Positions 48,243 to 53,033 of a stretch of 58,483 nucleotides of DNA are shown piece after piece (position 1 is the stretch's first letter; every line of letters begins with the position of its first letter). Below the pieces are notes generated by a model. The model did not search any database. It had not been told where the DNA came from and worked only from the letters and a program-made list of their open reading frames with translations. The stretch is from Promethearchaeota archaeon. Its GTDB lineage: Archaea; Asgardarchaeota; Lokiarchaeia; Sigyniarchaeales; SOKP01. Location: positions 1 to 58,483 of the forward strand of contig JAHPZI010000029.1 of the NCBI GenBank assembly GCA_019058295.1, given 5' to 3'. The position numbers and the translations under genes are program-made.

Positions 48243-48407
48243 AGTGATTAACCCTTGAAAAACATATCTTTTTGAAATCCTATTTTTAAATTCTATAAAT
48301 GAAAAAGTCTAAGATAATAAATTCTAAAGTAAGATTTTTTTAATAAGTATAAATTTTAAAATAAAGTATTCCAAAATTATAGAAAAAATAATTGAATTTT
48401 GAAAAAA

Positions 48408-49406
48408 ATGTTAACTCAAGAATATGTTAATGATGTTTTAAAAAACCAATGCGTTAATCTTCGATTCCATGCAAGAGGTGGACAAGGAGGTGTTACTGCT
48501 TCTAATTTATGCGTAGAAGCGTTCAAGGGTCGTGGAATTTGCCAGCCTAAATTTGGAGCGGAACGAGCGGGGAGTCCTACAGAGAGTTATGTTCGTCTTT
48601 CGTTTGATTATGATTTAATACGATCAAACGAACAAGTTTATGGTCCTCATTTTGTTTCTGTATTAGATCCTTCATTACTTACAGAAGTGGATGTTACTGC
48701 CGGCATGCCTCAAGGTGGTTGGTTGATTATAAATACTGTCATGAATCAATTAGAAATCCAAGATATCGTTAAAAGAAAAGATTTAAACATCGCTACTATT
48801 GATGCAACTAATATTGCTATGGAGATCTTAGGAAGAAATATAACAAATACAATCATTTTAGGTGCTTTAATTAGAGTTTCTCACTTATTCTCTCTTGAGG
48901 ATTTATCAGATGCGATTATGAGACGATTTAAAGGTGAAATAGCTGCGAAAAACATTGCCGCAATTAAACAAGCTATTGAAGAAACATGTTTGTATGAAGT
49001 CAATATTGAACTTGACTTTTCAAAAGATACAAAAGTTCCTTGGCAACAAGTTGAGCCAGGTTTGCCAGGATATAAAGAATTAGATAAGGCTGGAGTGTGG
49101 TACTGCGATGAAAATGTCATAAAAGTTGGAAGCGATCAAGTAAATACAGGTTCTTGGGGCGAATGGGAAATGGTTTGGGATAAGGAAACATGTACTGATT
49201 GTGCTCAATGTTGGTTTATTTGTCCTGATTTTGCAATTCTACGAGAAAAAGGAGATGATGGTCTATATCATATGGCTGGAATTGACGTTTTCCATTGCAA
49301 ATCATGTCAAAATTGCTTGGAAATTTGTCCCGTTAATGCTATTAGCAAAAGATCAAAACAAGGTCCAGCGTCTTGTGCTGTACCTGAAGAAACTGGAGGT
49401 AATTAA
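48408..49406 (+). CDS. Pyruvate-type oxidoreductase gamma-delta fusion
   Basis: RFHARGGQGGVT, FGAERAGSP, NTIILGA (gamma); NTGSW, CTDCAQCWFICPD, CKSCQNCLEICP (delta). Confidence 0.9.
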   Translation: MLTQEYVNDVLKNQCVNLRFHARGGQGGVTASNLCVEAFKGRGICQPKFGAERAGSPTESYVRLSFDYDLIRSNEQVYGPHFVSVLDPSLLTEVDVTAGMPQGGWLIINTVMNQLEIQDIVKRKDLNIATIDATNIAMEILGRNITNTIILGALIRVSHLFSLEDLSDAIMRRFKGEIAAKNIAAIKQAIEETCLYEVNIELDFSKDTKVPWQQVEPGLPGYKELDKAGVWYCDENVIKVGSDQVNTGSWGEWEMVWDKETCTDCAQCWFICPDFAILREKGDDGLYHMAGIDVFHCKSCQNCLEICPVNAISKRSKQGPASCAVPEETGGN

Positions 49407-49408
49407 AA

Positions 49409-50638
49409 ATGTCCATAGAACCAATGAAGATTTTTTTTAAAGAGATTAAAGAACCTACTGAAACCACAATGATAGGAAATTATGCGGTAGCTGGAGGAGT
49501 TACGCAAACGGATCCCGATGTTATTTGTGCATTTCCAATTACTCCTCAGACGCAATCAGTAGAAGGATTATCTGATGTAGTCCATCAAGGACGATTAAAA
49601 GCAGCCTTTGTAAATGTCGAATCTGAATTAGCTGCAATAAGTTATTCAACAGCTGCATGTGCTGCGGGGGCCAGAACTTTTACCGCAACCGCTTCTCAAG
49701 GGTATTTATTAATGACTGAAGCATTACCTATGGCTGTAGGATGGAGAGTCCCTCTTACTATGATGATCTCAGCGAGAGCATTTAACTCTCCAAATTTATC
49801 AATTTGGAATAGTTGGGAATTTACTATGACTAACTCTGAACTCGGATGGAATTGCATTGTATCTGAAAATGTCCAAGAGACATATGATGCTGCGATTCTT
49901 TCTGTAATGATATCAGAGGATTCGTTATTTCCAACGATGTTTGTTCATGATGGTTTTATAATATCTCACTCTGTTCAGAATTTATCTCTCATTCCTGACG
50001 AAGTAGTGAGAAATATGACACCAAAGAAGAAAAGACATACGATTAATCCAAAACACCCCGGGACATGGGGCGGAATTGTCACTCCTAGCTTCTTTATGGA
50101 GGGAAGAATGAATCTAGAAGAAGCAAAAAAGCCCGTCTTAGGCATAATGGAAGATGTTTACAAAAGATTTGAAAAAGCTACGGGCAGGCAATACAGATCA
50201 ATTAGAACTTTTAATTTGGATAATCCTTCAAAGACAGCATTCATAACGATGGGCTCCATGTGTGGGAATATAATCAGCTATATGACTAAGCATAAAGACG
50301 TTGGTCTTATAAAAATAAAAACCTACCGTCCCTTTCCCTACGAAGACTTACAAAAAATTATACAAGATCACAATATAGAGAAGCTAATTATTTTAGAGAA
50401 ATCAGATGCATTAAATGGATTATTACCCCCTTTTTCAATGACAATTGCTTCAGCATTATATCCCCTTGGAACGTTATTTAGAAGCTTTATAGTCGGATTA
50501 GGTGGTCGCGATGTTACAAGAGACGAATTTGATATAGCTAAAAAGAAGATGGAAACCGTAAAAGATATGAAAGGGCCTCTCTATTCATATCTAGGTGTGA
50601 GAGAAACAAAAGATAAAATTCATGGGGTGAGTAAATAA
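49409..50638 (+). CDS. porA: Pyruvate-type oxidoreductase alpha subunit
   Basis: AFPITPQT, NVESE, RTFTATASQG, DGFIISH, YRPFP, GLGGRD. Confidence 0.92.
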   Translation: MSIEPMKIFFKEIKEPTETTMIGNYAVAGGVTQTDPDVICAFPITPQTQSVEGLSDVVHQGRLKAAFVNVESELAAISYSTAACAAGARTFTATASQGYLLMTEALPMAVGWRVPLTMMISARAFNSPNLSIWNSWEFTMTNSELGWNCIVSENVQETYDAAILSVMISEDSLFPTMFVHDGFIISHSVQNLSLIPDEVVRNMTPKKKRHTINPKHPGTWGGIVTPSFFMEGRMNLEEAKKPVLGIMEDVYKRFEKATGRQYRSIRTFNLDNPSKTAFITMGSMCGNIISYMTKHKDVGLIKIKTYRPFPYEDLQKIIQDHNIEKLIILEKSDALNGLLPPFSMTIASALYPLGTLFRSFIVGLGGRDVTRDEFDIAKKKMETVKDMKGPLYSYLGVRETKDKIHGVSK

Positions 50639-50640
50639 AA

Positions 50641-51729
50641 ATGTCGAAACCAGAGAGAAATGTTATACAAATTGATGATTTATTGGCCAGAGATGGAAAA
50701 TGTAATGTGTTATTTCTAAATTACGATAATGAAGCCTTTATGAATACAGGAATTCAAGAAAGTGGTGGTACTCCACCTCATGCTGCTACAACTACAGGTC
50801 CTGCTGGAGAAAAAGTTCCTGGGAAAGTTGGAGTGAAACAAGATTTAGTAACTCCTTTTGGATTTTATGGTACAAAATCAACATTTTTAGCAACTGTTAA
50901 TCCAGCTTATCCAAACGATTTGATAGGAAAGATTGTCGAAGCGTTAAAAACAAATGGAGGAGCTTTCATTCAATCATATGCCGATTGTATGAGAGGCTGG
51001 AGGCATGCTTCTCAAGATGCTGTAAAAGTTTCTAAACTCGCGACCGATTGTGGTTATTGGCCATTATACACAATAAAAGTAAAAGATGGGATGCCAACTT
51101 TTTCATATTTTAGAGGTTTAGAAATAGATAAAGAAAAATTTGTTGATTATTTAAAATCTATGGGCAGATTCAGACATCTTTTTAGGCCAAAATTTATGGA
51201 AAAAGAAATCGATGAGATAATTTATTATACCGAACAACGAAATGAAAAATTAAAAGGACTAATTGAGCAATTTGGATCAGAAAAACCAGTTGATGTATAT
51301 AGAGTAAATCGGAAAGCATTAGAACCACAAAAACATCTGCTTCCTGGACATGGTCTGTGTCCTGGTTGCGGTGCGGGTATGTTTTTAAATCAAATGGCAA
51401 CAGCTGCACAATTAGTTGCTGGGACAAATATTATCTATGTAAATAACACAAGCTGTTCTGAAGTCTCTACTTCAAAGGATTTTGTTACTTCTTGGACTGT
51501 ACCATGGGTACATCATCTATTTGAATCAGGAGCAACAATCGCTGATGCAATTTCAACAACATATAAAATCATGAAATCAAAAGGTCTGTATAACGGTGAA
51601 GTACCATACCTCATACATATTGGTGGTGATGGCTCAACTTATGACATTGGTTTCCAATTTCTTAAGGCTGCTTTGGTAAGATCAAGTAGTTTTGTAGAAA
51701 TGAATGAATACCTTTTAAATCAGAAATAA
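50641..51729 (+). CDS. porB: Pyruvate-type oxidoreductase beta subunit, circularly permuted
   Basis: Begins with NVLFLNYDNEAFMNTGIQESGGTP (normally mid-protein) and ends with PGHGLCPGCG...TSCSEV...GGDGSTYDIGFQ (normally N-terminal). Confidence 0.9.
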   Translation: MSKPERNVIQIDDLLARDGKCNVLFLNYDNEAFMNTGIQESGGTPPHAATTTGPAGEKVPGKVGVKQDLVTPFGFYGTKSTFLATVNPAYPNDLIGKIVEALKTNGGAFIQSYADCMRGWRHASQDAVKVSKLATDCGYWPLYTIKVKDGMPTFSYFRGLEIDKEKFVDYLKSMGRFRHLFRPKFMEKEIDEIIYYTEQRNEKLKGLIEQFGSEKPVDVYRVNRKALEPQKHLLPGHGLCPGCGAGMFLNQMATAAQLVAGTNIIYVNNTSCSEVSTSKDFVTSWTVPWVHHLFESGATIADAISTTYKIMKSKGLYNGEVPYLIHIGGDGSTYDIGFQFLKAALVRSSSFVEMNEYLLNQK

Positions 51730-51807
51730 TTTCTTTTTTAACCTCTTATTTTTTTTTTAAATGTTTATTTGAAAATTGTTTTATTATTTTATATCTTTTT
51801 AATTTTT

Positions 51808-52581
51808 ATGGTTATAAAAATTGAGAAGAAAACTATAGATAAGGGAAAAATCTACACAATAATAATTGATAATCCTGAAGTAAAGAACGCAGTTGATGGA
51901 CCAACAGCTAAAGAACTTGCCGATGCGTTTCGAGATTTTGAACAAGACAATAATGCTTTAGTTGCTGTTTTATGGGGTGCTAATGGAACATTTTGCGCGG
52001 GGGCAAACTTAAAAGCTATCGCTGATGGGCGTGGTAATAGGATAGATACTAAAGGAGATGGTCCTATGGGACCTTCTAGAATGGTTCTCTCAAAACCCGT
52101 CATCGCAGCAGTGGCGGGATACGCAGTCGCAGGTGGTCTTGAACTTGCATGTTGGTGTGATATGCGAGTTGTTGAGAAAAACGCGATATTTGGAGTTTTT
52201 TGTCGTAGATTTGGAGTACCTCTTATTGATGGAGGAACTGTACGCCTTCCTAGATTAATTGGGTTAAGTCGAGCAATGGATATGATTCTTACAGGGCGCC
52301 CTGTAACTGCTGAAGAAGCTTATTCTTGGGGTCTTGCTAATCGCATTGTTGAAAATAATCAATCGAGACCAGAAGCAGAAAAATTGGCAAGAGAAATTGC
52401 TTTTCATCCTCAAACATGTATGAGAAATGATCGTTTATCAACTTATGAGCAATTTGGGATGAGTATAAAGGATGCAATGGCTAATGAATTCGAATGGGGC
52501 AGAAAAACCTTGGCTAGTGGAGAATATTTAGAAGGAAGTGAAGCATTTACACAAGGTAAAGGAAAACATGGAAAATTCTAA
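51808..52581 (+). CDS. Enoyl-CoA hydratase/crotonase family protein
   Basis: FCAGANL, KPVIAAVAGYAVAGGLEL, GVPLIDGGTVRLPRLIG. Confidence 0.93.
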   Translation: MVIKIEKKTIDKGKIYTIIIDNPEVKNAVDGPTAKELADAFRDFEQDNNALVAVLWGANGTFCAGANLKAIADGRGNRIDTKGDGPMGPSRMVLSKPVIAAVAGYAVAGGLELACWCDMRVVEKNAIFGVFCRRFGVPLIDGGTVRLPRLIGLSRAMDMILTGRPVTAEEAYSWGLANRIVENNQSRPEAEKLAREIAFHPQTCMRNDRLSTYEQFGMSIKDAMANEFEWGRKTLASGEYLEGSEAFTQGKGKHGKF

Positions 52582-52628: not shown

Positions 52629-53033
52629 ATGATAGCATTCGAAGAATTGAGAGTGAAAACTCCAAAAAGAGAAGTTCTTATAAATATAACGAGCGATATT
52701 AATAAAATTGTAAGAAATAGTAAAATAGAAGAAGGAGTCTGTCGAATTTTTGTCCCCCATACAACAGCGGGAATTACTATCAATGAAAACGCAGATCCTG
52801 CAGTAATGAAAGATATAATAAATTATTTGAATAAGTTAATTCCACAAAGAGCAGGCTTTTCTCACATGGAGGGCAATAGCGATGCGCATATAAAATCTTC
52901 CTTAACTGGACCATCTTTAGATGTTATTATTCACAATGGTAGATTAGTATTGGGGACTTGGCAAGGGATTATGTTCGCAGAATACGATGGTCCGCGTCAT
53001 AGAAAGGTATATATACAAGTTCAAGGGGAATAA
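52629..53033 (+). CDS. yjbQ: YjbQ/UPF0047 family protein
   Basis: PHTTAGITINENADP, GNSDAHIKS, LGTWQ, EYDGPR. Confidence 0.95.
   Translation: MIAFEELRVKTPKREVLINITSDINKIVRNSKIEEGVCRIFVPHTTAGITINENADPAVMKDIINYLNKLIPQRAGFSHMEGNSDAHIKSSLTGPSLDVIIHNGRLVLGTWQGIMFAEYDGPRHRKVYIQVQGE

Follow-up and report, generated by a model that had tools for sequence, protein, structure and literature searches.

A naturally circularly permuted beta subunit in a probable pyruvate:ferredoxin oxidoreductase-type enzyme of Lokiarchaeia

A beta subunit with exchanged halves

The window analysed here, a 58,483-nucleotide stretch of contig JAHPZI010000029.1 (positions 1 to 58,483) from a Promethearchaeota archaeon of the class Lokiarchaeia (assembly GCA_019058295.1), carries on its forward strand an open reading frame (ORF; 50641..51729, 362 aa plus stop) that very probably encodes the functional beta subunit of a three-gene 2-oxoacid:ferredoxin oxidoreductase (OFOR) of the pyruvate:ferredoxin oxidoreductase (PFOR) type, the single thiamine diphosphate (ThDP)-binding domain of which, the PP domain, is circularly permuted. 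A phmmer search against PDB chains placed two stretches of the ORF in reversed order on the beta subunit (PorB) of the M. acetivorans PFOR (9bt4_C, E 1.5e-45), with query aa 229-348 corresponding to PorB 6-116 and aa 23-193 to PorB 119-282, and returned the same two-piece reversed match for the beta subunit of oxalate oxidoreductase (5c4i_C, E 9.3e-42). With a profile made from 56 normal-order PorBs, the two segments of the ORF scored 138.5 and 102.5 bits, and the exchanged mapping (aa 22-207 on profile positions 123-296, aa 223-352 on positions 4-125) was recovered in all 28 family members on which the profile was run. Each PorB segment is present once in the ORF, and the two overlap on the profile only at about positions 119-125. 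A sequence-only reading of the window had proposed that both PorB halves occur in swapped order; alignment of the halves to 9bt4_C, 5c4i_C and the profile bears this out, and the ORF and the motifs named in that reading all lie where it had placed them, with NVLFLNYDNEAF starting at aa 22. By its segment order, linker and termini, the ORF is, as far as the sequence can tell, a natural circular permutant of a single domain.

The chain begins with an N-terminal extension (aa 1-21, 50641..50703), the LLAR core of which lines up with the last part of the canonical post-GDG helix. The ancestral C-terminal half follows (aa 22-207, 50704..51261; PorB 119-282), including, within this span, a strand with the DNE motif (aa 29-31, nt 50725-50733), the fourth cluster cysteine C116 in DCMRGW (nt 50986-50988), GYWPLY, GRFRHL and the C-terminal helix. 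A new linker without counterpart in the normal-order profile (aa 208-222, 51262..51306) joins the old C-terminus to the old N-terminus and leads into the ancestral N-terminal half (aa 223-352, 51307..51696; PorB 6-116), which holds the CxxC of GHGLCPGCG (C240, nt 51358-51360; C243, nt 51367-51369), C272 in NTSC (nt 51454-51456), WVHHLFE ahead of GDG, the GDG itself (aa 329-331, nt 51625-51633, within GGDG at aa 328-331) and the post-GDG helix. The C-terminal tail with the stop codon (aa 353-362, 51697..51729) is conserved in the family-level group and variable beyond it. The new termini are located in a former loop, GDG and DNE stand at opposite ends of the chain, and the continuous GDG-X(24-28)-(D/N)N motif is absent from the ORF. 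The normal spacing quoted in the sequence-only reading holds for the KorB of the window, with GDG at residue 105 and NN at 133, and for normal PorB representatives (27-28 residues); its placement of the cut inside the ThDP motif likewise stood, as the match to 9bt4_C and the 56-PorB profile both locate the break in the loop that connects the post-GDG helix to the strand ending in DNE.

Gene order in genomes and contigs

A colinear full-length copy was detected in 130 of the 161 searched genomes of the same class, compared with 1 of the 239 searched elsewhere in the phylum. The sole match outside the class (G115) lies on a 2.8-kb contig of a metagenome-assembled genome (MAG) with 8% contamination and most likely results from a binning error. 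In a word-indexed protein search, more than 120 clusters matched the ORF colinearly over its full length, with identities of 54-98%, and the named clusters among the permuted homologues were nearly all labelled Promethearchaeota, Lokiarchaeota or Helarchaeota. Exact look-ups located the permuted beta subunit in the closed genomes of P. syntrophicum MK-D1 (QEE14985.1, DSAG12_00808), Ca. Lokiarchaeum ossiferum (UYP46588.1) and Ca. Harpocratesius repetitus. Together with the grouping of the permuted proteins into a single clade at 100/100 support (see below), this search of Asgard genomes agrees with the earlier suggestion of a lineage marker, and the permutation is supported as a class-level marker of Lokiarchaeia.

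At the locus itself, a Logan contig from the run that is the likely source matches 50300-51794 with zero differences, and the linker junction is spanned by contigs of two other studies (51148-51923 and 51187-51354); no misassembly was found in these contigs over the junction. Short contigs only, 85-99% alike, were obtained from an RNA-library run, X17 (50300-50546, 50595-50792, 51022-51237 and 51436-51530), a weak indication in which DNA carry-over is possible. In addition, read and contig depth was 4- to 6-fold higher over the NYDNEAFMNTGIQ codons (50727-50787) in all four runs examined, with loose ends on both sides. A copy-number signal was rejected as the explanation for this rise, for PorB contigs of other organisms stack on the ultra-conserved motif.

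Conservation and selection

The residues N27-YDNEAF, GDG (329-331), C116, C240, C243 and C272 were invariant in 28 diverse members of the family. The four cysteines align with the CaGC, tgC and pCptgw positions of the profile, and the claim that all four putative [4Fe-4S] ligands had been kept through the rearrangement thus applies to 28 of 28 members. Nei-Gojobori estimates of the ratio of nonsynonymous to synonymous substitution rates (dN/dS), made against two unsaturated relatives, were 0.070 and 0.058 for the whole gene, 0.12-0.15 for aa 194-228, the region holding the linker, and 0.07-0.15 for the C-terminal tail. A conserved residue pattern was also recognized in the linker (aa 208-222) across the family.

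The beta gene and the cognate alpha gene tend to be kept or lost together. Three genomes lacking the permuted beta (91-99% completeness) lack the cognate alpha as well, and in a fourth the alpha gene ends at a contig edge. In the closed genome G033, from another family-level group, the beta gene is unlinked, and the cognate alpha gene, 62% identical, has been kept 543 kb away (beta at L014:6016-7065; L024 = G033:C1:2045955-2047169); the permuted beta of this genome begins with MLARK and has the shortest N-terminal extension. The low dN/dS, the co-loss of alpha and beta, and the transcription of the MK-D1 orthologue (PMC7015854) all favour the earlier expectation of a probably functional enzyme, and by these sequence-level criteria the ORF is almost certainly a functional permuted beta subunit.

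Predicted structure and mechanism

An AlphaFold2 monomer model built on a 28-sequence alignment reached a predicted template modelling score (pTM) of 0.82 and a mean predicted local distance difference test score (pLDDT) of 75. The strands and helices of the core were confident, including aa 21-27 and 323-328, the linker reached a pLDDT of about 90, and the N-terminal extension ranged from 78 to 94. When the model was compared with known structures by Foldseek and VIA-align, only domain VI of PFOR and oxalate oxidoreductase rose above background (Z 9.3-11.4). A shape search of the ESM Atlas returned no cluster with the full-length topology of the model, the best template modelling (TM) score by query being 0.49 over aa 20-261. 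In the same search, a 239-aa bacterial cluster of 'hypothetical proteins', rich in Acidobacteriota, lay on model aa 20-261 with a TM score of 0.73 by its own length. Spanning the C-terminal half and the start of the N-terminal half, this cluster could represent another rearranged PP-domain protein.

By homology, D330 of GDG and N30 of the D-N pair would still bind Mg-ThDP together, and C116, C240, C243 and C272 would hold the proximal [4Fe-4S] cluster. The Mg ligands are each about 30 residues from a chain end and 300 residues apart, compared with about 28 residues in normal PorB. The break would fall in the helix-to-strand loop of a beta-alpha-beta unit, and the topology suggests that this loop lies at the sheet edge distant from the cofactor, which would explain why a break there was tolerated. 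With the alpha subunit, the enzyme would convert pyruvate or a similar small 2-oxoacid and CoA to the acyl-CoA and CO2, and the electrons would pass three clusters to ferredoxin.

Operon, partner subunits and likely substrate

The permuted beta gene is the last of three genes on the forward strand, in the order gamma-delta, alpha and beta with gaps of 2 nt. The first gene (48399..49406) encodes a gamma-delta fusion subunit of 335 aa, in which a POR gamma domain (the CoA-binding domain III) is joined to a ferredoxin domain with two [4Fe-4S] clusters (domain V); Pfam POR (3.4e-27) and Fer4 families were detected, and the best PDB matches were the gamma (6.9e-31) and delta subunits of 9bt4. The second gene (49409..50638) encodes an alpha subunit of 409 aa comprising domains I and II with the pyrimidine-binding half of the ThDP site (Pfam POR_N 2.9e-55 and PFOR_II; 9bt4_B 7.7e-55), which is 66-95% identical in 13 relatives. 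Shine-Dalgarno-like motifs resembling GGAGG and GGTGA are placed inside the 3' end of the preceding gene. The gene order was retained in 11 loci spanning the whole operon and representing four family-level groups, and four shorter loci showed alpha-beta or another part of the permuted operon; the gamma-delta fusion was also kept in the operons of relatives. The intact por operon described from the sequence alone was recovered with its fusion subunit, its 2-nt gaps and its conservation in relatives. An apparent alpha-beta fusion in G265 (a 715-aa open frame) was dismissed as a run of N in the scaffold. The genome of the window also carries two normal-order PorB genes and a KorB, implying that the permuted gene belongs to an additional, distinct enzyme.

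The best solved-structure match of alpha, beta and gamma was in each case the M. acetivorans PFOR (9bt4), and the best NCBIfam models were PorA, PorB and PorC, all of them below their equivalog cut-offs. In the alpha subunit, FPITPQT contains the Thr typical of PFOR, and the Arg of ISARA is also present; since oxalate oxidoreductase has an Arg at the position of this Thr, oxalate is an unlikely substrate. In MK-D1, DSAG12_00808, DSAG12_00809 and DSAG12_00810 were listed as PFOR beta, alpha and delta/gamma in Supplementary Table 4 of Imachi et al. 2020, with reads per kilobase per million mapped reads (RPKM) of 286, 372 and 314, which is within the range given there for other catabolic genes, and 2-oxoacid:ferredoxin oxidoreductases were stressed as central to the energy metabolism of this strain (PMC7015854). 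On present evidence, the ORF and its partners are classed as an OFOR of the Por/Vor type, with pyruvate as the most likely substrate as judged by homology, and the name 'PorB' is provisional for a protein scoring below the NCBIfam PorB cut-off.

Downstream of the operon, a long T-rich tract (51730-51768) separates the beta stop codon from the start of an enoyl-CoA hydratase gene. The tract resembles an archaeal oligo-T terminator, and the hydratase may belong to a separate transcript. Just downstream, at 52629-53033, a YjbQ-family gene was identified (NCBIfam 'secondary thiamine-phosphate synthase enzyme', 1.6e-51), and a gene of this family adjoins the permuted operon again in three other loci (L006, L019 and L020). 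The location of a YjbQ gene beside the operon of a ThDP enzyme may reflect a functional link to thiamine supply.

Origin of the permutation

An IQ-TREE tree was calculated from the permuted sequences, un-permuted in silico, and 51 normal-order representatives, the two paralogues of the window's own genome and three intein-spliced sequences. The clade of permuted proteins has a stem of 1.15 substitutions per site, its sister is an Altiarchaeales PorB (97/90 support, one representative sequence), and the normal PorBs of the window's genome were placed elsewhere. In a library of 1.84 billion representatives at 50% identity, the permuted family amounted to one full-length representative and fragments, and the remainder of the best 150 matches were normal-order or fragmentary PorB-like proteins. 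The permutation has a single origin, close to the base of the class to which Lokiarchaeum, Promethearchaeum and Helarchaeota-labelled genomes belong.

The end of the post-GDG helix is represented at both ends of the chain, as LLAR at the N-terminus and as ALVR, with the invariant R347, at the C-terminus, corresponding to 'alER' in normal PorBs. HMMER alignments to the one-subunit PFORs 6cin and 1b0p reach back to aa 11. The N-terminal extension is shorter in other families, where LLAR is retained, and that of MK-D1 is similar in length and different in sequence. The LLAR core of the extension is possibly a relic of duplication, and this small overlap of the helix end at both termini fits a tandem duplication followed by fusion and truncation on two sides. 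As the route, a tandem duplication whose copies were fused in frame and then lost their outer halves is somewhat favoured. Two stand-alone C-terminal halves were considered as split intermediates and set aside: P0199 begins 8 nt from a contig end and is a fragment, and P0267 stands in an odd context and was not counted as evidence.

Inteins were found in the normal-order relatives. Four PorBs of Altiarchaeales and other archaea (P0125, P0134, P0141 and P0152; L021:6001-8559) carry LAGLIDADG inteins in the ThDP motif. In three of them, among which is the sister of the permuted clade, a single intein separates V from C-YDNE, about 8 residues downstream of the permutation breakpoint; in P0141 there are two, one following GDGA and the other preceding TGIQ. 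The literature searched yielded no paper on inteins in PorB. The permuted ORF had no match to a Hint or intein family in Pfam, and its ends align to PorB and not to intein blocks. A further observation in the Altiarchaeales por operon is a nucleotidyltransferase/HEPN pair of toxin-antitoxin-like appearance between porD and porA (L021:4074-4806).

Weighing of the alternatives

Several results count against a functional permuted beta subunit or against its proposed origin by duplication. The loops of the model expected to contact ThDP and the alpha subunit (aa 32-73 and 273-293) have a pLDDT below 50, and sequential aligners cover about half of the model (TM 0.40-0.48), which is what such aligners are expected to give with a permutant. 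The ORF scored 18.9 bits with Pfam TPP_enzyme_C (PF02775; cut-off 21.9) and 200.6 bits with NCBIfam PorB (NF008819; cut-off 405), both cut-offs being missed because of the swapped order and divergence. The duplication relic is short and weak (overlap at about 119-125), and no tandem-fusion or split intermediate was found. A misassembly or chimera of two porB fragments is suggested only by the unusual order and by a source MAG that is 79% complete, and it has virtually no chance of being correct: cultured strains with closed genomes and about 130 genomes at species level show the same order, the junction is crossed by independent contigs of other studies, and the gene is one open frame with a conserved linker, such that genome counts, contigs and closed genomes have already refuted it. 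Very improbable, and already disfavoured, is a decaying or non-catalytic relic, that is, a scrambled porB kept by chance or only as a scaffold. Sub-threshold family scores, 'hypothetical protein' labels in NCBI records and normal-order PorB paralogues in the same genome would be compatible with such a relic, but dN/dS is about 0.06, synonymous sites being almost saturated, the cofactor and cluster ligands are all invariant over 54-98% identity, about 130 genomes have an intact ORF, the cognate alpha has been kept despite the 543-kb separation in one closed genome, and the MK-D1 orthologue is transcribed (PMC7015854).

With a functional permuted beta subunit thus preferred, the alternatives to consider concern its substrate and the way in which the break arose. 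A working permuted OFOR acting mainly on another substrate (of the 2-oxoisovalerate or 2-oxobutyrate type, or broad-range), for which 'PorB' would be the wrong name, has a real but clearly lesser chance than a pyruvate enzyme. It is favoured by the three subunits falling below the NCBIfam equivalog cut-offs, by the nearness of the VorB subfamily (167.5 bits) and oxalate oxidoreductase beta (183.8 bits) scores to that of PorB (200.6 bits), by the Prokka label VorB given to the MK-D1 orthologue (KEGG K00170; PMC7015854 supplement), by the long stem branch (1.15), and by the position of the operon of the window among acyl-CoA and amino-acid catabolic genes, with a hotdog-fold thioesterase upstream and the enoyl-CoA hydratase downstream. 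These neighbouring catabolic genes, however, are not conserved beyond the family-level group, pyruvate enzymes are the best match of alpha, beta and gamma alike, among solved structures as among curated families, the alpha subunit keeps the PFOR-type Thr and Arg and lacks the Arg of oxalate oxidoreductase, and the sister protein is a PorB in a canonical porCDAB operon. As for the break, it might instead have arisen at an intein homing site, by an endonuclease cut or a split-intein intermediate in an intein-bearing ancestor and not by plain duplication and truncation. In such a scenario, an ancestor resembling the Altiarchaeales sister would have undergone breakage, or its split intein would have re-fused the halves C-then-N, with later loss of the intein; a C-then-N split-intein arrangement would first give a backbone-cyclised subunit. 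The intein of the sister PorB (97/90), about 8 residues from the breakpoint and in the same motif, and those of other close normal-order relatives, there or at two further motif sites, speak for this route. Inteins generally favour conserved motifs, so this nearness may be chance; moreover, the intein site and the breakpoint do not coincide exactly, the permuted proteins contain no intein remnant and align at their ends with PorB sequence, intein halves were seen flanking none of the permuted homologues, and the sister rests on one representative sequence. This origin is therefore improbable, and duplication with two-sided truncation is the preferred route. Were the intein origin true, it would be a natural intein-driven circular permutation of an enzyme.

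Significance

The enzyme family and its likely function are known, and the permuted topology appears to be undescribed. Full-text literature searches found no permuted OFOR or PFOR order, a review of PFOR diversity (Nov 2026) treats subunit and domain composition only and mentions neither permutation nor Asgard archaea, the swapped order of the MK-D1 PFOR beta subunit is not mentioned by Imachi et al. 2020 (PMC7015854), and the supplements of the Lokiarchaeum ossiferum paper have no locus-level entry for NEF87_002873. As far as was found in the literature, this is the first natural circular permutation within the PP domain of a ThDP enzyme, and the cut through the GDG...NN signature provides a natural test of how far an ancient fold tolerates a change of topology. 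The permutation also constitutes a rare genomic change of single origin that sets one Asgard class apart from the rest of the phylum.

The permuted operon is the listed PFOR of MK-D1 and not a side enzyme, and the oxidation of 2-oxoacids to yield reduced ferredoxin is the core of the model of syntrophy and eukaryogenesis built on this strain (PMC7015854). The permuted proteins are annotated as 'hypothetical protein' at NCBI (MK-D1, L. ossiferum and many MAGs) and as PFOR beta at JGI and KEGG. The NCBI labels are attributable to Pfam and NCBIfam scores below the cut-offs, and owing to such scores, automated metabolic reconstructions of Lokiarchaeia can miss the beta subunit. As cultured strains carry the permuted beta, its biochemistry and cryo-electron microscopy are feasible.

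Comparison with known systems

Among solved structures, the permuted beta subunit is closest to PorB of the M. acetivorans PFOR (9bt4_C), with which it shares homology in both halves, the GDG and DNE residues for Mg-ThDP, the four cluster cysteines and the same partner subunits. It differs from that protein in the exchanged halves, the 15-residue linker, the 21-residue N-terminal extension and the 10-residue tail; compared with the M. acetivorans PFOR, the permuted system also has gamma and delta fused, and the identity is only about 35-40% for each beta half. The oxalate oxidoreductase of Moorella thermoacetica (5c4i), whose beta subunit is the second-best solved match, is likewise encoded by three genes with a fused gamma-delta, whereas its beta subunit is of normal order and an Arg of its alpha subunit (YPIRPYT) binds the second carboxylate where a Thr is found here (FPITPQT). 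The nearest normal-order relative on the tree, the Altiarchaeales PorB (P0125 cluster, e.g. RLI86919.1), is 45% identical to the C-terminal half. In contrast to the permuted subunit, it has the normal order and a LAGLIDADG intein, and its operon (porC-porD-(NTase/HEPN)-porA-porB) encodes gamma and delta separately. Finally, DSAG12_00808 of MK-D1 is an orthologue that shares the permuted order and the operon, its identity to the protein described here being 56% (tblastn) to 59%; in Imachi et al. 2020 (PMC7015854) it is treated as a PFOR beta subunit like any other, and at NCBI it carries the label 'hypothetical protein'.

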